NCBI GenBank assembly: GCA_048264885.1 | Contig: JBLXCO010000002.1 | Span: forward strand, 485,040 to 549,039 | Source of the DNA: Bacteriovoracaceae bacterium | Lineage (GTDB): Bacteria > Bdellovibrionota > Bacteriovoracia > Bacteriovoracales > Bacteriovoracaceae | Length of the DNA stretch: 64,000 nucleotides | Direction of reading: 5' to 3' | Shown: positions 21,651-53,048 of the stretch, in pieces | Numbering within the stretch: the first letter of the stretch is position 1 | Layout of the letters: each line of letters begins with the position of its first letter | Notes under the pieces: generated by a model | Databases searched by the model: none | What the model was told of the DNA's origin: nothing | What the model saw: the letters and a program-made list of their open reading frames with translations, nothing else | Position numbers and translations under genes: made by a program

Positions 21651-21902
21651 AAGCTATTATAGTGCGAAAGACAGGCCAGGAACATTGTCTGTTATCTAAC
21701 ACTTAGATGCTCGCTCACTGTCTAAAGAATAGACAAGCATTCATCTAGGTCACGCTATGGCCCTTCAGCGGTGTTTAATTCTCAGACATCTCTGTAAATT
21801 TATCGGTCTTTGTCGTTTGCCGCAGAGGAACGACTAAGATGTTATCAATCAATAGATTCATTTGAACTTTGCCTATGTGCTTATTTCTCTTTTGGAGACG
21901 TT

Positions 21903-23081
21903 ATGAAATTCTACCTTCCTTGGGGACTTTTCGCTGCCCTTATTACGACTCACGTCAGTGCCGCCGGTACATTAGACGTCTATGCATATCCGCCAACGTC
22001 TCCACTTGATTGGTCGACTCCCAGGTCAACTCTTAAGAGTTTTCTAAAGAATTATCTGGCAGGCGTGGTCGGTGAGAGTTTCACCGTTAAGGGTCGTGAT
22101 GACTTTAATGAGGAATTTAGTCTCGATTCTAACTATCGCTCTTCGATGGGACATACGATCGGACATATCTCTTGCACACTCAGTAATGGGCAGAAGTATC
22201 AGCGCTGGAGTAGCTTTTCCGGGCAAGACTTTAGAGAGGTCGATAAAGAAATCGTTTTTAAAAAGAAACTGGGTCTTGGCTCACTTTTTTATGACTTTGA
22301 AGATGGCCACATCATTAGTGGCGACGAAAATATCATGCGTCTGACTTACTTAAAAGGCAGGCACGTGAAGGATTCCAATGGACGGCGTGTGCGTGAAAAA
22401 CCGCGCTATATTCGGATGCAGATTAACCAAGAGCAATGTGATGACCTCAAGCAGATGGTCGACTTTTTTGAGGGTTTTCACTTTCCTAAAGGTGCGCAGC
22501 TTGCTGAGCTTAAAAAAAGAGACCCTCGCGATGTCCTCTACTTCACCAATAATATGGACCCCTATGAAAGTTATATAAATCGCCAGCAAAGTGAATGGGC
22601 CAAAGTTGGCGGCGGGTGCGCTCCTTATGGAGTTGCGATGATGAAAGTGATAGGTTTCTATCCCGAAGAGCTCGATGCCACTTTCAAGCTCAATATTCCT
22701 GTCTCCTATAAAATCATTGGTAATGAGCACGGGCATGAAGTGAGTATGTCCTCCATTATTTTTGGTAAGAACGGCAGTTCCTGGACTTTTAAAGGCCATA
22801 AAAATCGCTTTTTTAATCAATATGACCCAAAGCTCATTTGGGACTTAATTGGTGAGGTGCGTGCTTGTCTTGGACGCACTGACTATCAAGGTGAAAAATG
22901 CACCGATAGTGCCCGCAAGTTTATGAATCAATATGACTTTAAGGTTTCACTTGCTCCGACGCAGAACTTTTCACATCAGACGCGCACCTATCAATGGGTC
23001 GATGATGGCGATCGTCGCAGACGCGAAAAGGTGAGTGTGACCACTACTAGTGAGGCCACGGGAATTGAATTAGTTAAGTAA
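21903..23081 (+). CDS. Secreted hypothetical protein (about 392 aa)
   Basis: ATG 21903 preceded by TTGGAG. Signal peptide 'MKFYLPWGLFAALITTHVSA'. No family recognised. Confidence 0.65.
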   Translation: MKFYLPWGLFAALITTHVSAAGTLDVYAYPPTSPLDWSTPRSTLKSFLKNYLAGVVGESFTVKGRDDFNEEFSLDSNYRSSMGHTIGHISCTLSNGQKYQRWSSFSGQDFREVDKEIVFKKKLGLGSLFYDFEDGHIISGDENIMRLTYLKGRHVKDSNGRRVREKPRYIRMQINQEQCDDLKQMVDFFEGFHFPKGAQLAELKKRDPRDVLYFTNNMDPYESYINRQQSEWAKVGGGCAPYGVAMMKVIGFYPEELDATFKLNIPVSYKIIGNEHGHEVSMSSIIFGKNGSSWTFKGHKNRFFNQYDPKLIWDLIGEVRACLGRTDYQGEKCTDSARKFMNQYDFKVSLAPTQNFSHQTRTYQWVDDGDRRRREKVSVTTTSEATGIELVK

Positions 23082-23996
23082 TTTGATTTGATAGCTCTTG
23101 TGTATCGATGAGTTCTTAAAGTCCTGTGGAATACTTTGAGAACTCGTCTCTCTAACTTGAAAAGATTCCATCACTTTATGACTGAGCTTAAATTTTTTCT
23201 TATTGGTGGAAAAGAGTAGGAGTCCATCCTTTGTCAGCCACTTTGTCGTCTCAGTAATGAGCTGTTCGTGATCTTTGACGATATCAAAATCGCTCTGCAT
23301 TCTCTTTGAGTTTGAAAATGTTGGCGGGTCAAGAAAGATGAGATCAAACCGCTCATTTGGTTTTTCACTGATAAAGTCAAGGCATGATCCCGCTAGAAAT
23401 TGGTGTTCACCGGGATTGAGACCATTGAGGCGATAGTTTTCCATTCCCCAATCGAGATATGTATGAGAGAGGTCTACATTGGTGGTCTTGGCCCCTGAAA
23501 GAGCGGCCGCTACTCCCACTGAGCAGGTGTAGCTAAAGAGGTTGAGCATCTTCTTTGGCCGCAGCTGCTTTTCAATGAGGTCTCGCTGAGTGCGCATGTC
23601 AAGAAAGAGTCCAGTGTCGACATAATCCCATAGATTACATAGATAGCGGCGCTCGCCCTCAGTGATTTCAATGAATTCATCTTTTCGAGAGATTTTGTGA
23701 TAGCGATCATCTCGCTTTTGAACCTTTCGCTCTTTCCAGATGAGGTCACTCTCGTTGAGAGCGAAAATATCAATAATCTCGACTTTAAGAATTTCAACTT
23801 TCGCAAGCAGCGCTTGATCGCGCTCGGGGTCAAGCTTATTCCACACCACAAAGTAGGGCCCATAGCAATCCACGATAAAGGGATACTCGGGAATATCATG
23901 ATGGTAGAGGCGATAGGCATCAATATTATTTTTTCGCGCCCACTTTGAGCGGTGGGAGTAATTTTTCTTTAAGCGATTTAAGAAGGCTTCTCTCAT
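23070..23996 (-). CDS. Class I SAM-dependent rRNA methyltransferase, RlmK-like (resembles the C-terminal half of RlmKL)
   Basis: N-terminal 'FLNRLKKNYSHRSKWARKNNIDAYRLYHHDIPEYPFIVDCY', then 'LNLFSYTCSVGVAAA' and 'DLIFLDPPTFSNSK'. ATG 23996 overlaps the upstream stop (ATGA). Confidence 0.7.
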   Translation of the reverse strand: MREAFLNRLKKNYSHRSKWARKNNIDAYRLYHHDIPEYPFIVDCYGPYFVVWNKLDPERDQALLAKVEILKVEIIDIFALNESDLIWKERKVQKRDDRYHKISRKDEFIEITEGERRYLCNLWDYVDTGLFLDMRTQRDLIEKQLRPKKMLNLFSYTCSVGVAAALSGAKTTNVDLSHTYLDWGMENYRLNGLNPGEHQFLAGSCLDFISEKPNERFDLIFLDPPTFSNSKRMQSDFDIVKDHEQLITETTKWLTKDGLLLFSTNKKKFKLSHKVMESFQVRETSSQSIPQDFKNSSIHKSYQIKLLN

Positions 23997-25120
23997 TGGG
24001 CGGTAATTCCAATCACGTGATTGGCCAGTCGTTCGGCCCATTCGTATTCACGTAGGATAATGGGCGCCACCAAGTGTTCCTCTTCTCCCTCTGTCGTTGG
24101 ATCATAGTCATAAAGAGGTAGACTTGAGTCGGGGTAGAGAGAGTCTCTCACATAAAAGACTCCTTTGCCGCGACACCCGCCGCGCTTATTCATTTCTACT
24201 CTCACTTCAAGAGCTCGGCGCTCATCACGACGGGCCTTTGAGAGCAGGCGACGTTTTTCATCAGGGTCTTGTGTTTGCTCTGCAAGAGTCCTAGATTCCT
24301 GAGCCTTTTTAAGGAGGGTATCTGTGAAAGTTGTCGTGAACTCACAATTCTCACTCGAGACATGGTCGTTATAGCCCACAACCATGACCGCATGCCAGAA
24401 GGCGTGATGATTATAGATCACAATGAGGGGTGCTTCATATTTATCAAACCACTCTTTCATGAGCTCAACGATATTGTCGGGTGTGCTGTTGACCGCCCAC
24501 TGACTGCCTTGTGGATCGGCATGCAAAACTGTGCGCGAGAAGTGGGGCATAGGAATTGGCGCGCCACTGAGATGATCTAGTCCAATAATCCAATTGGCCG
24601 CTGGTCCGTAGTAAGCGCCTGGCGTATTTGGTCCTGCGAAAACGCGATCACCACTTTGATCATAGCTATACCAGGCCTTCATAAAAGGAAAGTCTGCGTT
24701 TCTCATCATTTGGGTGGTGGAATTGAGGCGATAGATGGTGTCTGTGCGCCAATCACTGATCAGCTCATCACCAATGCCCGCCTTAGAGAGATTCATAAAG
24801 TAGCGCTCAGATAAATCGATCTTTTGGCCTTGACCCAGCTTGGAGAGCCACCACTCGGCCACAGCGGTGTGGGACATAAAGAGGCACGAGCCAGCATTAT
24901 CTTGGTAGGGCGAGGGCATCACATAGGGCAGGAGTTTATTCATGCCTCCAGCATAAGAAAGTGGGCCCGGGCGCATGGCCTTACTCATTGATGGTATTTC
25001 ACCTTCGACTTCAGGGTTTTCAGCAAATTTAAGTCCCTTAAGATAAATTTGGCCGCTTGTGGCGCTAAGAGTGGTGCTGAAAATTAAGCCCGTAATAAGG
25101 CTAAGTATTCGAATATACAT
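23993..25120 (-). CDS. Secreted papain-like (C1-like) cysteine peptidase
   Basis: Signal peptide 'MYIRILSLITGLIFSTTLSA'. In 'YQDNAGSCLFMS' the Gln lies 6 residues before the Cys, as in papain. The His motif is 'WHAVMVVGYND'. ATG 25120 has GGAG 7 nt upstream; the track start is 25144. Confidence 0.6.
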   Translation of the reverse strand: MYIRILSLITGLIFSTTLSATSGQIYLKGLKFAENPEVEGEIPSMSKAMRPGPLSYAGGMNKLLPYVMPSPYQDNAGSCLFMSHTAVAEWWLSKLGQGQKIDLSERYFMNLSKAGIGDELISDWRTDTIYRLNSTTQMMRNADFPFMKAWYSYDQSGDRVFAGPNTPGAYYGPAANWIIGLDHLSGAPIPMPHFSRTVLHADPQGSQWAVNSTPDNIVELMKEWFDKYEAPLIVIYNHHAFWHAVMVVGYNDHVSSENCEFTTTFTDTLLKKAQESRTLAEQTQDPDEKRRLLSKARRDERRALEVRVEMNKRGGCRGKGVFYVRDSLYPDSSLPLYDYDPTTEGEEEHLVAPIILREYEWAERLANHVIGITAQ

Positions 25121-25261
25121 AATCGCTCCGGTTTTTTTGGCCATCCATTACATGCTTTTTTGAGGGGTTAGTCAGGACGCAATGAGTTGATTTATTTGCT
25201 CAAGTATAGCGACGTTACGGCCGATAAGTGGGATCAGGAACCACTCAAAAGGATAGAGAAA

Positions 25262-26233
25262 ATGACCATGAAACGACTTCGACCGCTAGCGATGGCAGTC
25301 TCGCTAGCCGCTTTTATTGCTGCTGCCCCAGGGGTGCACGCCGCTGGTGTGATGCATGCACTCGTTCATTCCTCCTCTCAATTAGAAGAGTTGCTTTTGC
25401 GCAAGGGATTTAATTCCTCACAAGCAAGTTCACTGATTGCTTCACGAGCAGAAGTCCTGCGCTCGCTGGGAGGTGAGGGAGAGATCTTAAGTGGGGGGGT
25501 TCTTTATCAACGTCTGGCCGCGCTTAAAGTTGAAGGCAATCGCGACGCTAAGATTCAAAGGCAAATGTTGAGATTGCTCGCTAATGATGATTCAAAGCTT
25601 AATCAAAAACAATTGGGCACGCTCTTTAATCAAATGATTTATCTTTCAAATCGCTACGGCACTTCAGCGTCCGCGGTGATGGTTTGCTCTCAGTGTGTGG
25701 ACACAGAGCTCGCGCGCTCGGGAGTTCATTTTGCGCTTGGAAGTATTGTCGGGCCAGCAAATAAAAAAGCACTCGAGCTGATTCCCAATCGCCCCAGTGA
25801 TTTAAAGCGATATCTTGGTAGGGAACTAAAGGCCGCAGGTCTAGGTGATTATTCGCGCGTTTCAAGTCGCTTTGTAAGGCCCGAAGAAGAGCGCTCCTTT
25901 GCTCTTTTTCTCTCGATGAGAAATTCCGCTGATGAGGCCAGTCGTGAACTCTATGGCCAAATCATCAAGCTCTCAACTGATCAAAAAACTAAAAAAGTTG
26001 ACCTCTTTAATCCCAACGACACTCATAAACTTTGGAAGATCTTCTCTGATGACCCCAATAGTGCAGAGAAAAAGTCATGGACTTCTTTATTAAAAGAAGT
26101 AGAGCAGGCGCGCGAGGACGGGGAGAGTCTCGAGCGGGCGTTTTATAGTGTGCTTGAAAAGCGTGCTCGAAGTGATGAATCGCTGGCCGATGAGCTCGAG
26201 ATTCTTAAAGAGAAAAATTGTTATTTTAGATAA
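25262..26233 (+). CDS. Secreted hypothetical protein, probably helical
   Basis: Signal peptide 'MKRLRPLAMAVSLAAFIAAAPGVHA'. Lies 23 bp upstream of the amidoligase-like gene. No family recognised. Confidence 0.6.
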   Translation: MTMKRLRPLAMAVSLAAFIAAAPGVHAAGVMHALVHSSSQLEELLLRKGFNSSQASSLIASRAEVLRSLGGEGEILSGGVLYQRLAALKVEGNRDAKIQRQMLRLLANDDSKLNQKQLGTLFNQMIYLSNRYGTSASAVMVCSQCVDTELARSGVHFALGSIVGPANKKALELIPNRPSDLKRYLGRELKAAGLGDYSRVSSRFVRPEEERSFALFLSMRNSADEASRELYGQIIKLSTDQKTKKVDLFNPNDTHKLWKIFSDDPNSAEKKSWTSLLKEVEQAREDGESLERAFYSVLEKRARSDESLADELEILKEKNCYFR

Positions 26234-26256
26234 TTATATTTTCGAAGGTGTTTAGA

Positions 26257-29200
26257 ATGAAAAAGAATTATTTTGCTAAGAGCGCGGCCTATCTCTCCCT
26301 CTTGGGGGTGATGACGAGTTGCTCTTCTTTTAATCGCTCCCTAAGTTCGGCAGATCCGATCAACAATCGATCCGCCCATCAGGTGTATGGTGAGCTTCAA
26401 GAGAGTGGGGTGGGCTTTAGTGCGCGCGCCTTGATGGTTGATGGCGCTGATGCCAATGGTGATCTCGCAGGTGGCGTCACTTGGGGTGCCGAAAAAGAGG
26501 CCTCCTCCTGGCTTATCCTGAAAGCGATGGGTCCTAGTGGTGATCAATTCAAAAACTTCATTGGAAATCTGCCGGATGATAAGCGCGAATTATTTTTGCG
26601 CGACTTCTTAAGTAACTACGCTAAAGATGCCAATGGCTATCGCACTTTTAGAGATGACTCCGGAAAGGTGATTGATCTTGCTCGAGACGTAAAGAATGTC
26701 GACGGCGAAGCTAAGACGCTTGACCTTGCCTTTTTAAAAGAGACAAACTTTGAAACGGCTTCTCTGAGTGAACTCGATGAAAAGTTTGCTAAGCTTTGTG
26801 AGGCTTGGGAAGGAAAGCCCATGTCTTTTATCAAGCCCAGTGTGCGCGCGAAGCTTTGGAAGAGTCAGCTCCCAGGTCTTCAAGGAGTGCGCTTTACTAA
26901 GAATTATTATGATTACACGCCAAATTTTGGCCCGGCCGAGAAGTACGTGCGCGACGCCCACGGCACCGGTGTGGGTGGTTGGGAGATAAACTTTAGACCC
27001 CTTGGCACTTATGGAGAGTTTGAAGAGTCAGTGGCGTGGTTTAGATCTGAACTTAAAAATGCGGGCACACTCTTTCAGGCCCCAGGTCACCAACGAATGG
27101 TCTTTCAGCGCCATCCCAATCTCCCGGAGGAAAAGCTTGCTGATCTCTACCGCGCCATTCAGGCCTTGATTGTCCTTGATGGTATTAAGGGGCGCACGGG
27201 CATTGAGTTTGCCAATTATAAGTCAGTTCAAAGTGACGCCGAAATGGCCTCATTAAGAACAGGACGTGGTGTGATTCGCCTTGAGGGAGATCGTTTTGGC
27301 GCAAACACGATGGCCGTCGAATTTCGTGCCGGCACAAAAGATCTGAGGCTCGCAAGATTTCTGCAAACCACCCTCGCTGCTCGTATTGCCGCCAATGACT
27401 TTGATGGGCTGGAAGATATTTCTAAATACTCTCTCTACAGTCCTGTCAGCTACAACGGTTGGGACGCCGCTGATCTTTCTAATCGCTTCGGGGTAAAAAA
27501 GAAAGTGGCCCAACAGGCGATTGATAACTTGAACGCTGCCGGAATCAAGGCCGGCTATACCATTCCCTTTTGGAATTGGACAAAGCGAGGCATTCCCTTT
27601 ATTAGCACTGCTAAGCGCGCTATCATTAGAGATGCCACCAAGTCCTTTATTGAGCAAGCCGCGCAAGTTTCCGGTTCACCGGATCAGAGCAAACGTGAAT
27701 TGAGAGATTTAATGGTGGGCTGGACTAAGCACACAAATCTTCAAAATGATCTGCGCCGCTATATTAAACCTAAGCGTTCTGTGGCCGATACGGCCGACAT
27801 CTTAAATTTTAATCCTCCTCCAGGTCGTGCCTTAGTCGCAAACCCTGTGGATGTGAATCAGATTGATCTTGGGATTGAGTATTCGGGTAAAATGCCGGTT
27901 AAGCTCTACGCCGATTTCTCTGATGACAAACTTCAAGATAATAAAAAAGCTTGGATCCAAACCTCGGCCGACCTGGGCACCGAAGAGCGCAAGGCCCTGC
28001 TTGAGCGCGTTGCGGTTGATCTGCATAAAAATCTTGGAGGAAGTGGTGAGGCCTCTTTAGTTCAAAGTGATGGCCACGGCCATGGTCTAGATATCTCCTA
28101 TGAAATTCGCGATCCCAAAAATCGCAAGTGGATTGTCGAGTGGGATGGTATTGGACGCAGCTACAGTGCTGAAGGTGAAATCATTGACGGCTCTGTGCGC
28201 TCGGGTTCAGTTGAGCTTGTGACTCCTAAATTTGTCCCGACAGCTGAAGATATGGGGGCGGTATTTAAGGCCTTTGATAGCAATAATATCGTGCCACACA
28301 TTCTCACTGGTGGTGGTCACATTAACATTGACCTCGCGGCCTTTGATGGCAATCCCAAGGCAATGGCGCGCTTTATGACGATCTTTCATGAGCACCGAGG
28401 GATCATCTCTTTGATGTTCCAGCACTATAATCGTCTGCGCACTTCAGAGCCACTGGAAATATCTAATTCCCTTGCCCAAAAGCTCAAGAACTTTAACGGC
28501 ACTGAGGATGAACTCAAGCAGCTTCTCTATAATGAGCAGTACTTTAACACTCGCTATGGCAGAAAGACTCGCTACGTTCAACTCGATCTCTCGGCCTATT
28601 ATCAGGACGTTATTCCTGAGCAATTTATTACTGAGGACTTTGATATTCAAAGCCCCGTCGATCCTTGGCGCAGAACCTTTCGCGTAGACCCGCGCATTCG
28701 CAAGGCGGAGTTTAGAATGTTCAATGCCCCTAGAGATCCCGTTGAGTCGGCACTACAGATTCGCCTGGTGCGCGCCATGCTAAATAAGGCCCTCAACGAA
28801 GACAGTACGCTATCAGGCAAGGTTCAGAAGGTCGATCACCTTGAATATTTGGCCCATCCAGAGCGCGCTCTGAATGATCTAAAAAAGATGTGTGATGATC
28901 TTGGACTAGAAGTCGATGATTATCGTCCGGCCATGGGTGAGGGTCTCTCAGATACTGACCTTGCTAAGAAGTCAGAGTTCTTTGAAACCTTCCAGCAGAA
29001 AATTGCGCCTTTTAAAGCGCAAACGGGCTGGGGGCAAGCGGTGCCACCAAGAAGTGCTGCTGCGGCCCTGAGTTCTGAAGGTCGTCACTGGAGTCCGGGT
29101 CCTGCTGATGAGCTCAATACCATGACACATGAGGATCGCATTGCGGCCGCTCGTCGCGCTCAAGCTCTGCGCGATCAGATTGTGCCAAACCGCTCGATGC

Positions 29201-29259
29201 AAAAGTCTTATCGCCGAAGTGATAGCTGTGCAGCCGCTATCTCCTCCTTCTTGCGATAG
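26257..29259 (+). CDS. Lipoprotein with two tandem amidoligase (glutamine-synthetase-like, PF12224-type) modules
   Basis: Lipoprotein signal 'LSLLGVMTSC'. Module 2 has 'WIVEWDGIG', 'SVELVTPKF', 'GGGHINIDL', 'RYGRKTRYVQLDL' and 'KAEFRMFNAP'. Module 1 has 'GWEINFRPLG', 'APGHQRMVF' and 'AVEFRAGTKD'. The assignment rests on remembered family motifs and was not checked by search. Confidence 0.55.
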   Translation: MKKNYFAKSAAYLSLLGVMTSCSSFNRSLSSADPINNRSAHQVYGELQESGVGFSARALMVDGADANGDLAGGVTWGAEKEASSWLILKAMGPSGDQFKNFIGNLPDDKRELFLRDFLSNYAKDANGYRTFRDDSGKVIDLARDVKNVDGEAKTLDLAFLKETNFETASLSELDEKFAKLCEAWEGKPMSFIKPSVRAKLWKSQLPGLQGVRFTKNYYDYTPNFGPAEKYVRDAHGTGVGGWEINFRPLGTYGEFEESVAWFRSELKNAGTLFQAPGHQRMVFQRHPNLPEEKLADLYRAIQALIVLDGIKGRTGIEFANYKSVQSDAEMASLRTGRGVIRLEGDRFGANTMAVEFRAGTKDLRLARFLQTTLAARIAANDFDGLEDISKYSLYSPVSYNGWDAADLSNRFGVKKKVAQQAIDNLNAAGIKAGYTIPFWNWTKRGIPFISTAKRAIIRDATKSFIEQAAQVSGSPDQSKRELRDLMVGWTKHTNLQNDLRRYIKPKRSVADTADILNFNPPPGRALVANPVDVNQIDLGIEYSGKMPVKLYADFSDDKLQDNKKAWIQTSADLGTEERKALLERVAVDLHKNLGGSGEASLVQSDGHGHGLDISYEIRDPKNRKWIVEWDGIGRSYSAEGEIIDGSVRSGSVELVTPKFVPTAEDMGAVFKAFDSNNIVPHILTGGGHINIDLAAFDGNPKAMARFMTIFHEHRGIISLMFQHYNRLRTSEPLEISNSLAQKLKNFNGTEDELKQLLYNEQYFNTRYGRKTRYVQLDLSAYYQDVIPEQFITEDFDIQSPVDPWRRTFRVDPRIRKAEFRMFNAPRDPVESALQIRLVRAMLNKALNEDSTLSGKVQKVDHLEYLAHPERALNDLKKMCDDLGLEVDDYRPAMGEGLSDTDLAKKSEFFETFQQKIAPFKAQTGWGQAVPPRSAAAALSSEGRHWSPGPADELNTMTHEDRIAAARRAQALRDQIVPNRSMQKSYRRSDSCAAAISSFLR

Positions 29260-29271
29260 TTTCTTTAAGTT

Positions 29272-29305
29272 GCGGGCAAGCTCTGTCTTGCCCGCAGCTT
29301 TTTTT
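29272..29305 (+). terminator. Rho-independent terminator
   Basis: GCGGGCAAG-CTCTGT-CTTGCCCGC followed by AGCTTTTTTT. The T-run overlaps the prfC stop codon. Confidence 0.8.
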
Positions 29306-42219: not shown

Positions 42220-42246
42220 GCCTCTCAATTGAGAGGCTTTTTTTTT
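42220..42246. terminator. Bidirectional rho-independent terminator
   Basis: GCCTCTC-AATT-GAGAGGC flanked by A6 upstream and T9 downstream. It sits between convergent genes ending at 42204 and 42245. Confidence 0.85.
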
Positions 42247-43036
42247 ACTTGGTTTTCTTTGTTGATTTTTTGGTCGCTTTCTTGGCAGTTTTCTTGGCCG
42301 TTTTCTTTGTCGTCTTTTGGGCCGCTTTCTTGGTGACCTTTTTCGCCGCTTGAGTGGGTGCTTTCTTGGTTACTTTCTTTGCTACTTTGGCCGTCTTTTT
42401 GTCTGTGGCCTTGGCCGTTTTCTTGGTGGTTTTTTTGGTCGCTGCTTTGGGCGTTTCTTTAGCTACTTTCTGGGCCACTTTCTTGGTCACTTTTTTTGTT
42501 TCTTTCTTTTCTGCTTTTGGGGCCGCCTGCTTGGTCGTTTTTTTGGGGGCCTTGGCAGCAAGGGTGCTCACTTTCTTTTTAACTTCCTTGCGCGCTTTTT
42601 GCACTTCATCTTCAACTTCTTTTCTCACGCGCTTGGCTTCGCGCTCGACATCGGCCTTTACTTTGAGTGCTTCTTTTTTCATATTCTCAGCTTCGCGCGC
42701 GACTTCTTTTGAAACGCGATCGATGGCCTTATTAATTTTCTTTTTTGTGGTCTTAACCACTGTTTCAAAGACATCCATGGTCTCGCCGGCCTCGAGTCGT
42801 AAATTTCTTAGCTCTTCAACCAGTTGCGAGTAGAAGCCTTGAATTTTCTTTTTCTGCACATTCACCTTGTCATAGCGTTGGTGAAAAATAGTGGCGAGTT
42901 CTTTGTAGCGCTCTTCATTGAGAGATTTTATCTGCGCTAGCAGGTCCGTGCACTTTTCACGAAAATCGGCCTTCTTCTTTTTGACCTGTCCTTCGAGTTG
43001 TTCTTTTTGTTTTTTCAGAAAGTCGGGAAGTCCCAT
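42245..43036 (-). CDS. Lysine/alanine-rich histone-H1-like protein with N-terminal coiled coil
   Basis: The C-terminal ~100 aa are degenerate (A/T)KK(A/T/V)xKK repeats ('KKTTKKTAKATDKKTAKVAKKVTKKAP...'). The N-terminal half is charged and heptad-like. ATG 43036 has GGAG 6 nt upstream; ATG 43051 is also possible. Confidence 0.7.
   Translation of the reverse strand: MGLPDFLKKQKEQLEGQVKKKKADFREKCTDLLAQIKSLNEERYKELATIFHQRYDKVNVQKKKIQGFYSQLVEELRNLRLEAGETMDVFETVVKTTKKKINKAIDRVSKEVAREAENMKKEALKVKADVEREAKRVRKEVEDEVQKARKEVKKKVSTLAAKAPKKTTKQAAPKAEKKETKKVTKKVAQKVAKETPKAATKKTTKKTAKATDKKTAKVAKKVTKKAPTQAAKKVTKKAAQKTTKKTAKKTAKKATKKSTKKTK
42248..42560 (-). repeat. Degenerate in-frame coding repeats (AAG/AAA-rich) encoding the KK-repeat tail
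   Basis: Reiterated cttggc / tttctt motifs on the plus strand. They generate the spurious Phe/Leu/Gly-rich shadow ORFs 42317..42712 and 42354..42833. Confidence 0.7.
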
Positions 43037-43161
43037 GATGATCTCCGCCATTGATGGTTATAGTTTAATCGCCTCCAAGTTTATCACATTTTTTAATTGT
43101 GGGCCCGTGCTCGCTCCTTTAAGATGGGTTATCACACGTTCATTATAGCTATGGAGTTTCT

Positions 43162-49742: not shown

Positions 49743-52259
49743 ATGGCCATGAAACATTTTAAATTCACGCTCTTGCTCGCTGCCCTGACTCTAGGTGCCT
49801 GTTCAGACAAGGCCTATCGTCTTGAGAATGACAATTTTGTCATTGGTACTGAAGATGTGCGCACGAAGGGCTCTGTTCCAGAGGGCAATCTCATGGCCAC
49901 GGCGATTAAAGAGGTCAACGATCTCGACATCGTCTTTTACCCATCAAGACTTCTAAACTCTGGGACTCCAACGCTCCTTAGAACCTCGATGGACAGCTCT
50001 GATGAGAGTTCACTGCTCTCAGTTTATCCTGATGGCATTAAAGATCAGTTTATCGTCGGTAATATGAAAGGTCGCGACATTCGCGCTTTTCTAGAAGAGC
50101 GCTCAGAAGACAATTACGACGTTGATCTGCAAGTGGCCGGTATGAATTATCATATCCACTATGTTGGTGGTTGGAAGCAATACGCTTACTATGAGCTTGA
50201 GCGCGGGGTGCCTTGGGATGATGATCGCATCTACCGCGTGGCCGTGAGTGAGTACTATTATTTTAGTGGCGCGACTTTTCCAAGCTATAAGTATCGCAAT
50301 GGCCTAGGTCTGCGCGATTTTGTTGAGTCTTCATTTATTAGTGCTAAGAGCTCTCTTAAGAGCTATCTGGGGAGTGGTCGCGAGTGGCCTTTTCTTAAAG
50401 AGCCGCGTGCAAATGTCACTCGAGGCGTTCTTTCAGATCTTGGAACTAAGACAATTGCTGAAATTCAAGGTGAGTCTCACCGCTCACCAATCTATGGTCA
50501 TCAGGTGACAACCACTGGTGTTGTGACCGCCACCGGAAGTGTGGAGTGGTATCCAGGCGGAGAAGAAGTTTTCATTCAAAGCCTAAATCCAGATCAGAAT
50601 CCCTTGACGTCTGAAGGACTGCACGTTCATTTTGGTCAACTGAGAACGTACCTTGAGCTCGGTGATGTAATTGAAGTGAGTGGAACTGTTTATGAGCAGG
50701 TCTTTTCAAATGGTCTTGGTCGCACTGGTCTGCGCGAGATCACCTCGCTCAAGGTGCTCAGAAAAGGTGAGGAGCTTCCGGCCCCCATAAAGCTCGGTCT
50801 TGGCGGGCGAGAAATTCCAAAAGATAAAATCTCTACCTATAGAGGTAACCTCAATCTTAAGCCAAAGCTCAACCTCGCCGATGGAGTTGATTTCTTTGAA
50901 GCTCTAGAGGGAATGCGAGTCACAATCTCTAACCCTAGGTTAGTTGGCTTTAGAGGTGGAAATGAAGAATTTGAAAGCTCTAAGCCAAAAGGCTACTTAA
51001 ATCTCTACTTGGTAGCCGATGCCAATGAGTCGACTGAATTGATGACGGACGCTGGTGGGATTATTATTGATGAACTCAAAGATGATTTTAATCCAGAGAT
51101 TGTCCAAGTCCTCTCCAACCATTTTTCTAATGGGATCGCTACTGATGTGTACTTTAATGTCGGTGATATCATCTCTGGTGATATCACTGGGGTGATGGGT
51201 TATGAGAAAAATATCTTTGGTGGTGGTGACTACGCTATTGTGATTCCTGAGGCGCAAAAAACGATTTCAGACTATGCGGCCAGTGCCACTGTGAGAACTG
51301 AACTTGAAGATCGTCCCATTACTCAACTTGTGGGCACTGACGACCAACTTACCGTCGCGAGCTACAACGTAGAAAACCTGGCCGGTAATCAAAAGACTCG
51401 TCTTAAAGAAATTGGCAAATCAATTGCCCTTAATCTCAAATGCCCGGATATTCTAAGCTTAGTTGAGATTCAAGACCTCAATGGGGATGACTTTGCTGGC
51501 GACTCCGGTGCTGATAAAACTCTTCAGCGCCTGATCCGCTCTATCGATTGTCCAGGTGTTGACTACCGCGCTCTCAATATTGATCCAATCATGAATGGTG
51601 AGGGTGGAAAGCCAGGTGGTAATATTCGCGTGGCCATCATCTATAATGCTAACCGAGTAGGCTTTACCCCCCGTGGAAATGCCGGTGCCCTCACTGAAAC
51701 TCGAATCATGCAAGATGGCTCACTTGAGAATAATCCCGGTCGTGTATTTCCCAATGATCCCTCTTTTGAGCACACCAGAAAGAGCTTGGCCGCGGAATTT
51801 ACCTTCAAAGGTGAGCGCGTGATTGTGATTGCCAACCACTTTAACTCTAAACTCGGAGACGCTTCGCTTTGGGGCGCCGAGCAGCCTGCCTATCTAGGTA
51901 GTGAAACGCGCCGCCAGCAGTTGGCGACAAAAATGAGTGACTTTGTTGAGCTACTCGTTAAACGCGATCCTAAAAATCATGTTTTGGTTGTGGGTGACTT
52001 TAATGCGCACATCGAAGAGTCGGCCATGCGTATTCTTGAGGGCAATGAACTCAAAAATCTGATGACCTACGGGGACTTGGTTCCTTTTAATAATCGCTAT
52101 ACGACCAATTACAATGGTAACTCTCAGGCCATCGACTTCATCTTTGCCAGTTACAACCTGCTCGAGATGAATCCTGAGTTTGAACCCCTGCATATTAACT
52201 CTGACTACATGGGAAGACTTTCAGACCACGATCCGGTTATTGCGCGTTTTAAATTTTAA
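49743..52259 (+). CDS. ExeM/NucH-like extracellular nuclease lipoprotein (C-terminal EEP domain)
   Basis: Lipobox 'ALTLGAC'. 'IAEIQGESHRSPIYGHQVTTTGVVTA' is an OB-like insert typical of ExeM/NucH. EEP motifs are 'VASYNVENL', 'LVEIQD', 'VGDFNA' and 'LSDHDPVIARF'. Confidence 0.7.
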   Translation: MAMKHFKFTLLLAALTLGACSDKAYRLENDNFVIGTEDVRTKGSVPEGNLMATAIKEVNDLDIVFYPSRLLNSGTPTLLRTSMDSSDESSLLSVYPDGIKDQFIVGNMKGRDIRAFLEERSEDNYDVDLQVAGMNYHIHYVGGWKQYAYYELERGVPWDDDRIYRVAVSEYYYFSGATFPSYKYRNGLGLRDFVESSFISAKSSLKSYLGSGREWPFLKEPRANVTRGVLSDLGTKTIAEIQGESHRSPIYGHQVTTTGVVTATGSVEWYPGGEEVFIQSLNPDQNPLTSEGLHVHFGQLRTYLELGDVIEVSGTVYEQVFSNGLGRTGLREITSLKVLRKGEELPAPIKLGLGGREIPKDKISTYRGNLNLKPKLNLADGVDFFEALEGMRVTISNPRLVGFRGGNEEFESSKPKGYLNLYLVADANESTELMTDAGGIIIDELKDDFNPEIVQVLSNHFSNGIATDVYFNVGDIISGDITGVMGYEKNIFGGGDYAIVIPEAQKTISDYAASATVRTELEDRPITQLVGTDDQLTVASYNVENLAGNQKTRLKEIGKSIALNLKCPDILSLVEIQDLNGDDFAGDSGADKTLQRLIRSIDCPGVDYRALNIDPIMNGEGGKPGGNIRVAIIYNANRVGFTPRGNAGALTETRIMQDGSLENNPGRVFPNDPSFEHTRKSLAAEFTFKGERVIVIANHFNSKLGDASLWGAEQPAYLGSETRRQQLATKMSDFVELLVKRDPKNHVLVVGDFNAHIEESAMRILEGNELKNLMTYGDLVPFNNRYTTNYNGNSQAIDFIFASYNLLEMNPEFEPLHINSDYMGRLSDHDPVIARFKF

Positions 52260-52271
52260 TGAGGAGATTTT

Positions 52272-53048
52272 ATGAAGAAGCTACTTCTTTCAGTTCTCGC
52301 TCTGGGCCTCGCTCTTTTGGGCCCGCAAACGTCTGCACTGGCAAAAATAAATCCGACCACCCAGTGGGGAAGCACTACTGCTGATCAACTTGATTCTCGC
52401 TTTGAAATGTGCTTTTGGAATATCTACAAGGCGCCAACTGAGCAGACAATGCGCGATATCGATGCGCTCGTGGAGCGCTCAGATATTCTTCTTTTGCAAG
52501 AAATGGAGTTAAAAAGAAATCCTGAGGAACTCTACAATGGTCACTTCGCCGCCTCTTGGGGCACTACTGGTGTGGCAACTCTTTCAGATGTGAAGCAAAA
52601 AAAGGCCAAGGCTTTTGTCTCGGACTCCTATGAGTTTGGCTTTGTGACGCCAAAATCAATTTTGCTTTCGCACTTTGATCTTGCTGGGCAAGACTTGCTT
52701 GTGGTCAATGTGCACGCCCTCAATTTTGTCGCCTTTGATGCCTTCGCGCTTCAAATGAAGGAGCTTGGCAAGCTTGTCTCAAAGCATGAAGGTCCAGTTT
52801 TGATTGCGGGAGACTTTAACACTTGGTTTTTTACTCGCACCGAGCTTATTGCCAATATTCTCGGGGAACACGGTATTACTGAAATTGAGTTCGCCCTTGA
52901 AGGGGATCACGACCCACGCGCTGGGCGCTTTGGTCTGCTTGACCGCGCTTATGCACGAGGACTTGATATTGTGGCAACCGAGATTATGGATGAGATGACC
53001 TCAAGTGATCACATGCCTTCTTGTGTTACCCTTGATAAAGGAATTTAA
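52272..53048 (+). CDS. Secreted endonuclease/exonuclease/phosphatase (EEP) family protein
   Basis: Signal peptide. 'FWNIYK', 'ILLLQEM', 'VVNVHA', 'AGDFNTW' and 'SSDHMP'. Confidence 0.75.
   Translation: MKKLLLSVLALGLALLGPQTSALAKINPTTQWGSTTADQLDSRFEMCFWNIYKAPTEQTMRDIDALVERSDILLLQEMELKRNPEELYNGHFAASWGTTGVATLSDVKQKKAKAFVSDSYEFGFVTPKSILLSHFDLAGQDLLVVNVHALNFVAFDAFALQMKELGKLVSKHEGPVLIAGDFNTWFFTRTELIANILGEHGITEIEFALEGDHDPRAGRFGLLDRAYARGLDIVATEIMDEMTSSDHMPSCVTLDKGI

Follow-up and report, generated by a model that had tools for sequence, protein, structure and literature searches.

A predicted exported protein with two glutamine synthetase-fold modules, confined to Bdellovibrionota

The window analysed here, a 64-kb stretch of contig JBLXCO010000002.1 from a Bacteriovoracaceae bacterium, carries a gene for a putative exported ligase of about 1000 residues. 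Two modules of the predicted glutamine synthetase (GS) fold follow one another in the protein, behind a predicted signal peptide. A second gene for a secreted protein stands directly upstream on the same strand, and a third is encoded divergently. We describe the ligase first, then its relatives and its neighbours, and weigh what it may do.

Architecture of the putative ligase

The gene and the parts of its product are listed below, with all features on the forward strand.

26257..29259, +, ligase gene (open reading frame (ORF) 26248..29259, 1003 residues when read from GTG)
26257..26322, +, predicted signal peptide with lipobox (MKKNYFAKSAAYLSLLGVMTS followed by C; Cys25), called by the PS51257-type rule
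26470..27402, +, N module, residues ~75-385, predicted divergent GS/guanidino-kinase-fold domain
27403..27852, +, helical linker, residues ~386-535, with AlphaFold2 helices at 407-519
27853..28812, +, C module, residues ~536-855, predicted Amidoligase_2-type GS-fold domain
28813..29217, +, C-terminal helical region, residues ~856-990, with AlphaFold2 helices at 864-976
29218..29259, +, C-terminal cysteine tail SDSCAAAISSFLR (C994, invariant in alignment A1) and stop codon

Residues are numbered from GTG 26248, and the true start methionine is residue 4 (nucleotide 26257). The start is placed at ATG 26257 because this codon is preceded by an AAGGTG ribosome-binding site and because database protein P0001, 100% identical to the ligase product, agrees with it in length (1000 residues).

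A preliminary description of the locus had drawn attention to a series of short motifs. All were recovered in the ligase translation, in the order given there.

residues 18-25, LLGVMTSC, N-terminus, lipobox string
residues 244-251, GWEINFRP, N half
residues 278-286, APGHQRMVF, N half
residues 356-365, AVEFRAGTKD, N half
residues 628-636, WIVEWDGIG, C half
residues 654-662, SVELVTPKF, C half
residues 688-696, GGGHINIDL, C half
residues 769-781, RYGRKTRYVQLDL, C half
residues 819-828, KAEFRMFNAP, C half

The first strand of each motif set had been overlooked: it reads GAEKEASS (80-87) in the N half and DLGIEYSG (540-547) in the C half. Each module thus completed holds an ordered set of Glu, Glu, His, Arg and Glu-x-Arg. 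The simplified pattern E-x(3,4)-P ... G-H-[LIVMFQ] ... E-F-R is present twice, in order. Among 5000 residue shuffles at least one copy arose in 10 and at least two copies in none, for a pattern that was drawn up post hoc, from data already in view.

By its profile matches, the C module belongs to Amidoligase_2 (PF12224). The sole Pfam match of the window ligase is a sub-threshold one to this family, over residues 587-786 and profile positions 18-215 (16 bits, expectation value (E) 0.011; the gathering cutoff is 22 bits). All 32 aligned homologues match PF12224 at E <= 0.1 (best 6.4e-9), each time with the C half alone, and the cutoff is passed by P0096 (35 bits), P0099 (27.1), P0097 (22.7) and P0090 (22.2). 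In various homologues the alignments reach profile positions 18-244 of 245. Because these homologues match or pass the profile, the window C module is assigned to the family by transitive homology. Its conserved residues are E544, H610/H612, E631-x-D633, E656, H691/N693/D695, R772/K773 and E821-x-R823. When the full-length model was searched with Foldseek against the viral models of BFVD, the best matches were phage proteins named 'Amidoligase enzyme' (E 6.9e-4, probability 1.00, template modelling (TM) score 0.47-0.50). Gln-synt_C (PF00120) and the Pup ligase/deamidase profile were not matched by any of the 32 members at E <= 0.1, nor by the window ligase at E <= 1.

Both halves had been described as tandem amidoligase modules. 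This holds for the C half, an Amidoligase_2 domain by PF12224, but has to be given up for the N half: residues 1-540 gave no match to PF12224, to another GS-clan profile or to any other profile in Pfam at E <= 0.1 in the 32 members. By predicted structure the N half is a GS-fold domain, far more divergent than the C module. An AlphaFold2 model of residues 41-401 alone has a predicted local distance difference test score (pLDDT) of 88.9. Its 28 best Foldseek matches in the PDB are all glutamine synthetases, from at least 14 distinct entries. After them come six guanidino kinases (arginine, lombricine and taurocyamine kinases), enzymes that share the catalytic fold of GS. For this model the E-values are marginal (about 1e-2; best 8.3e-3, probability up to 0.95, TM 0.22-0.33) and the ranking is uniform. 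The N-module catalytic set comprises E82-x-E84, E246, H281, R344 and E358-x-R360; an insert of ~140 residues separates the first strand from the remainder.

The full-length AlphaFold2 model (pLDDT 82.3, predicted TM score 0.82) behaves in the same way. Its top 50 matches in the PDB are all glutamine synthetases, with a best E of 1.4e-2, a probability of 0.96 and a TM score of about 0.3. The rankings of the two models bear out the GS fold that had been claimed for both halves. A PDB search by sequence, with the family profile, yielded only spurious matches, which we discarded (E 0.06 for the Vis ADP-ribosyltransferase, E 2.1 for the MET kinase).

Are the two halves copies of each other? The order of secondary-structure elements around the motifs is alike in both halves of the model. 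Profile-profile comparison of the N and C halves with hhalign gave probabilities of 5-18%, for 32- and 84-sequence alignments and in local, low-mact and global modes. These alignments are inconsistent in the middle and do not run over the quoted motifs; a low-stringency path pairs E82 with E544 and E358-x-R360 with E821-x-R823. At such non-significant probabilities the comparison gives no evidence for a recent internal duplication, and the halves are not demonstrably the duplicates of the preliminary description. We take them for GS-fold modules that are distantly related, rather than for recent copies of one Amidoligase_2 domain.

The modules are joined by a helical linker in which W442, W444 and K456 are invariant. 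Part of it resembles a helix-turn-helix (HTH), in the stretch RFGVKKKVAQQAIDNLNAAGI (nucleotides ~27470-27540, residues ~410-430); HTH_11 matches to the linker are weak, with a best E of 0.002, and come from 4 of the 32 homologues. Such an element is odd inside an exported enzyme.

Many relatives are longer than the window ligase. They reach 1400-2100 residues because of a C-terminal extension: 500-1100 residues of HEAT repeats, inserted after the C-terminal helical region. The extension of P0107 scores as HEAT_2 at 2e-13. Judged from these sequences, the extensions suggest protein partners or protein substrates.

The chain ends in a cysteine tail. Of 134 family members, 117 have a Cys within their last 25 residues, where 5% would be expected, at an overall Cys content of 0.21% in the family; mostly it stands 5-14 residues from the end. 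It is retained even past HEAT extensions of about 1000 residues (P0092, P0093 and P0107, for example). The tail matched no known C-terminal sorting model. We also considered whether a Cys near the C-terminus might mark exported proteins in general and found the signal too weak, with 5 of ~17 secreted against 3 of ~30 cytoplasmic ORFs of the window.

Conservation, export and distribution of the family

Catalytic residues were scored in an alignment of 84 relatives, down to about 20-30% identity, in which the motif residues of the ligase are invariant or near-invariant. In the N set, E82, E84, E246, H281, E358 and R360 are each kept in 80-83 of the 84, and R344 in 68. The same range of 80-83 applies to every residue of the C set (E544, E631, D633, E656, H691, R772, E821 and R823). 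Both sets, EEEHER in the N module and EEDEHRER in the C module, are intact in 77 of 84 sequences.

The exceptions are few. The N set is lost and the C set nearly kept in P0128 and P0130, P0183 has lost the C set and kept the N set, and P0129 and P0143 have lost both. As rare lineages lose one set yet keep the other, the conservation pattern looks like that of two active sites, each independent of the other and each under selection. Both sets follow the order of the metal, adenosine triphosphate (ATP) and acyl-phosphate ligands of GS, a residue mapping that we infer from motif order.

P0128, P0130 and P0183 are natural half-dead variants of the ligase. There are also stand-alone secreted modules, C-like in P0216 and P0218-P0220 and N-like in P0221. 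A split-gene arrangement was considered and rejected: neither P0221 (locus L074) nor P0220 (locus L075) is adjacent to a complementary module.

The ligase is predicted from its N-terminus to be Sec-exported, with a lipobox in this genome. Its first residues, MKKNYFAKSAAYLSLLGVMTSC, satisfy a PROSITE PS51257-type lipobox rule, applied as a regular expression; it asks, among the first 35 residues, for a basic n-region, an uncharged h-region and a lipobox of the form [LIVM..]-x-[AGS]-C. Signal-like N-termini are found in about 130 of 134 full-length relatives. Among the 134, 34 have a strict lipobox and 21 a lipobox with Asn at -1; the remainder look like ordinary signal peptides. We regard export as a trait of the family and lipidation as not one, because about 130 of 134 relatives are signal-like but only about 55 have the lipobox Cys. 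The lipoprotein of the preliminary description is thereby upheld for the window ligase, as a prediction, but does not extend to the family. An exported ATP-dependent ligase had also been called paradoxical; the export signal does prove family-wide, yet the combination is less of a paradox than was claimed.

When 1.84 billion representative proteins were searched exhaustively with the profile, only 175 matched at E <= 1e-3. In a scan of GTDB with one genome for each species, 69 loci were found; apart from a single record (L008) they all belong to Bdellovibrionota. They cover Bacteriovoracia, including Halobacteriovorax and metagenome-assembled genomes (MAGs) of Bacteriovorax stolpii, and Bdellovibrionia, including Bdellovibrio sp. 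HCB337 and B. qaytius; a Silvanigrellales MAG (L062) has one as well. The exceptional record, JBLHVN010000001.1, is filed as a 'Sulfitobacter sp.' MAG. It holds the full Bacteriovoracaceae block of peptidase, methyltransferase, upstream gene, ligase and prfC, and its organism label is probably wrong for that reason. The ligase family is confined to Bdellovibrionota. Two or three paralogues per genome are common, as in the pairs L020 and L068 or L021 and L027. In searches that do not cover B. bacteriovorus exhaustively, no homologue from strain HD100 surfaced that would link the ligase with locus tags or published omics.

Neighbouring genes and other features of the window

The ligase gene is flanked by the following features.

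25262..26233, +, upstream gene: 323-residue secreted protein of no known family, signal peptide MTMKRLRPLAMAVSLAAFIAAAPGVHA
23993..25144, -, divergent gene: secreted papain-like (C1-like) cysteine peptidase candidate
29267..29300, no strand assigned, hairpin resembling a terminator, with a T run and a 14-bp stem (8 G-C pairs), located between the convergent ligase and prfC genes

The upstream ORF ends 23 bp before ATG 26257. Its product had been described as a signal-peptide protein of no known family at just this distance, and the ORF, the signal and the empty library scans agree: there is no match in Pfam, NCBIfam, PADLOC, PHROG or the PDB. In a terminator scan no terminator-like site appeared between its stop and the ligase gene; one weak match (25285-25308) lies inside the 5' end of the upstream gene. 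With the 23-bp gap, the ribosome-binding site, the lack of an intervening terminator and the hairpin after the ligase, the two genes look co-transcribed.

An alignment of 27 upstream proteins, from the window and 26 orthologue loci, shows a CxxC motif (C142, C145) and a further Cys four residues from the C-terminus ('KNCYFR', 'NC[FY]F'). All three cysteines are invariant. The window protein is 32% identical to its H. marinus counterpart. These cysteines may be redox, metal or disulfide partners of the C-terminal Cys of the ligase.

The divergent ORF starts 117 bp away from the upstream gene if its first ATG is used, or 141 bp away if an internal Met is used instead. Residues Q81, C87, H251 and N259 are invariant in this peptidase candidate, which is 45% identical to its H. 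marinus neighbour. The window protein has no Pfam match, PF00112 included. Weak PF00112 matches occur in 6 of 14 orthologues (best E 0.0017), and against the PDB the family profile finds falcipain-2 and cathepsin L best (E 0.07-0.1), aligned on a Q-x(4)-G-S-C nucleophile motif. The divergent papain-like peptidase of the preliminary description can stand as a candidate on these orthologue profiles, which are weakly yet consistently papain-like; its 141-bp gap holds for the internal Met.

The neighbourhood was compared across the orthologue clade, which comprises marine Bacteriovoracaceae at 51% identity or more. Wherever upstream flank was available at an orthologue locus, a homologue of the upstream gene stands directly 5' of the ligase. 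The divergent peptidase is found by tblastn at 22 orthologue loci, 21 of which were grouped by neighbour clustering. Another peptidase, Peptidase_C1 (25.8 bits, above threshold), follows directly downstream of the ligase at 9 orthologue loci, on the same strand: in H. marinus (L001, 9126-10214, +) and in 8 relatives. It is not in the window, where the terminator and then prfC follow the ligase. A methyltransferase gene and prfC are equally syntenic with the ligase across the clade.

Clustering of the flanking ORFs at 44 more distant loci found no conserved partner and none of the neighbours named above; only a histidine kinase recurs there, at 8 loci. Phyletic co-occurrence, which had been proposed as a check on the two-gene unit, is therefore seen in the orthologue clade but not around the 44 distant members. 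The two-gene unit is clade-specific, and a functional link between its genes is suggestive at best.

The ligase and three neighbours had no match in NCBIfam, PADLOC or PHROGs, and a known defence or phage module was rejected on these grounds.

Several features elsewhere in the window deserve a record. A lipoprotein with 5'-nucleotidase C and EEP domains (49743-52259, +) is adjacent to a secreted EEP protein (52272-53048, +); an exported nuclease/phosphatase-family pair of this kind (49743-53048) fits the secreted hydrolase arsenal of a predator. A 268-residue protein with a repetitive Lys/Ala/Thr-rich tail, KKTAKKTAKKATKKSTKKTK, is encoded at 42245-43051 (-) and has no Pfam match. AT skew is unusually negative (-0.27) at 42-44 kb and 54-56 kb. 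Finally, 21810-23081 (+) encodes a secreted protein of ~385 residues with the probable start MKFYLPWGLFAALITTHVSAAG and no library match; it is detectable only in the closest relative, L005, among 73 loci.

Possible roles and comparison with known systems

We tentatively favour a carboxylate-amine ligase that is exported and works in a prey compartment, a reading drawn from sequence and structural models that we think quite possible; its substrate and energy source we infer. Each module would be an independent active site, in which a carboxylate would be activated to an acyl-phosphate with the help of a nucleotide and of divalent metals. This would then be passed to an amine, to give an amide or isopeptide bond. 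Action outside the predator cytoplasm seems most likely because the ligase is exported by obligate predators. The site could be the periplasm or cytoplasm of the invaded prey, where prey ATP may leak or stay available. Candidate targets would be prey or bdelloplast components such as peptidoglycan peptides, envelope proteins or small amines, and two modules would allow two ligation steps or two substrates. In marine Bacteriovoracaceae, the upstream CxxC protein may act as a partner or as a self-protection factor, by analogy with the Bd3459/Bd3460 pair discussed below. Secreted papain-like peptidases encoded next to the ligase could undo the modification or process it.

We also put this together as a single, more detailed picture, which we hold to be doubtful as a whole: a lineage-specific, two-headed GS-fold ligase that would use prey ATP outside the predator cytoplasm to form amide or isopeptide bonds on prey or bdelloplast components, with the Cys tail as a new tether, sorting or regulatory element and with the CxxC protein as a dedicated partner or a self-protection protein in one clade.

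Several points weigh against a ligase at work in prey. ATP is normally absent from the periplasm. A lipoprotein of 110 kDa would need some route into prey compartments. The PF12224 score of the window ligase falls under the cutoff (16 vs 22 bits), and the PDB Foldseek E-values of both models are marginal (8e-3 to 1e-1, TM 0.2-0.35). Around the 44 more distant members of the family the partner genes do not occur, and in the orthologue clade the neighbourhood is weak evidence because the methyltransferase gene and prfC, both housekeeping genes, are syntenic as well. B. bacteriovorus sensu stricto yielded no homologue, in searches that were not exhaustive for that species.

Some of these points fit a housekeeping role in the predator's own envelope, in which the GS fold would turn over no ATP and would serve for hydrolysis, for transfer or for the reverse reaction. 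Such a protein would be retained in the periplasm or outer membrane and would remodel the predator's own peptidoglycan, lipoproteins or osmolytes. Its lipobox, with Ser at +2, suggests envelope retention; the gene lies among housekeeping genes in conserved synteny; the textbook periplasm holds no ATP; and the family also occurs in lineages not known to invade prey, namely the Silvanigrellales MAG L062 and the epibiotic B. qaytius. We nevertheless judge this role unlikely. Both modules retain full metal and phosphoryl-transfer residues, which would be superfluous for a pure hydrolase. About 60% of relatives are plain secreted proteins, not lipoproteins, and confinement to a phylum of predators speaks for a role tied to that lifestyle.

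Protein tagging of the PafA/Dop type had been evoked earlier. One module would ligate a tag to lysines, the other would remove or prepare it, and the papain-like peptidases would process or deconjugate the product. Pup ligase has, as textbooks tell, the GS fold; thiol peptidases recurrently adjoin the ligase gene, as the Pfam text on PF12224 reportedly notes for that family too; and the HEAT-repeat extensions fit protein substrates. The resemblance does not go further than this. Pup-ligase profiles found no match at E <= 0.1 in 32 members, no conserved small tag-like gene lies nearby, and most of the family has no peptidase as a neighbour. Both modules have complete catalytic sets of the same type, with no split into ligase and deamidase. 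Tagging appears distinctly improbable to us.

In a phosphotransferase of the guanidino-kinase kind, one or both modules would transfer phosphate to a prey or envelope molecule, at a guanidino or an amino group. The idea draws on the arginine, lombricine and taurocyamine kinases, which are the next fold matches of the N module after GS. But GS entries rank above these kinases throughout, E-x-E / H / E-x-R is the pattern of GS and amidoligases, and what the C module resembles is the amidoligase profile and, in structure, phage amidoligases, so that we see little to recommend it.

The least credible and poorly supported option is that the protein is not exported (a mis-called start or a cytoplasmic-side anchor) or is a binding or structural pseudoenzyme: export is read from an N-terminal sequence pattern and a few relatives have degenerate catalytic sets, but an n-region, an h-region and a lipobox or Ala-x-Ala-like site recur in about 130 of 134 otherwise unrelated N-termini, the start is fixed by the ribosome-binding site and P0001, and 77 of 84 relatives keep both sets.

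Returning to a ligase that acts in prey, what would it mean? The family is large, strongly conserved, phylum-restricted and exported, and has two intact ligase-type sites. Such features point to a chemistry that forms bonds and consumes energy, be it in the prey compartment or in the envelope of the predator, and that nobody appears to have looked for. The enzymes known from Bdellovibrio-like predation are, to our knowledge, almost all hydrolases or transpeptidases. If prey ATP is used extracellularly, the ligase would represent a new class of bacterial predation effector, a biosynthetic one where known effectors are hydrolytic. The amidoligase superfamily, in turn, gains an architecture in which two modules are fused, and a second GS-fold domain family for which there is no profile.

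The family assignment of the C domain is not new, as NCBI already names some members 'amidoligase family protein'. A literature search returned no paper on amidoligases in Halobacteriovorax or Bdellovibrio and none describing the architecture of the ligase, in line with the earlier statement that no such system had been described. A Klebsiella 'amidoligase' paper proved irrelevant, the enzyme being of the ATP-grasp type. No account was found of a second GS-fold module that lacks a profile, of its fusion to the other module, of an export signal throughout the family, of a confinement to Bdellovibrionota, of the Cys tail or of the clade-specific partners, and all of these appear undescribed.

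Iyer et al. reportedly treated Amidoligase_2 in 2009 as single-domain bacterial and phage enzymes within the GS-like carboxylate-amine ligase superfamily. The ligase has in common with this family the C-module profile match, the structural match to phage amidoligases, the residue order and a nearby candidate thiol peptidase. Known members are single-domain proteins of about 250-500 residues, cytoplasmic or phage-encoded. The window ligase is instead predicted to be exported and has about 1000 residues, with a second, divergent GS-fold module, a helical linker and a Cys tail, and with HEAT repeats in relatives.

Type I GlnA (PDB 8fbp, 2bvc, 4s17) is the best PDB fold match of both the whole ligase and the isolated N module. 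The motif order is common to them: an E-x-E strand, a Glu strand, a Gly-rich/His strand, an Arg and an E-x-R strand. The ligase has no sequence-profile similarity to GS, the TM scores between them are only 0.2-0.35, and the ligase is predicted to be exported and has two catalytic modules per chain. It also gives no sign of the GS N-terminal domain or of a ring oligomer.

PafA and Dop likewise bring two GS-fold units into one system, and a protein-modification role is possible for the ligase too. In Actinobacteria each of them is a cytoplasmic protein of its own, linked to Pup and the proteasome. The units of the ligase are fused, apparently exported and from another phylum, without a Pup-like gene or a profile match.

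Lig E, a periplasmic nucleotide-dependent ligase with a signal peptide (PMC10799422; 10.64898/2026.03.22.713542), provides a precedent for an exported ATP-dependent ligase that acts outside the cytoplasm. It differs in its nucleotidyltransferase fold, in its DNA substrate and in being small and single-domain.

In B. bacteriovorus, Bd3459 and Bd3460 are an exported DD-endopeptidase of the prey wall and an adjacent self-protection protein (PMC4686830). The likeness lies in an exported predator enzyme beside a small exported partner, and it is on this model that the upstream CxxC protein may be understood. The parallel would be one of analogy: Bd3459 is a hydrolase of the penicillin-binding protein type, its partner is built of ankyrin repeats, and neither has homology to either gene described here.

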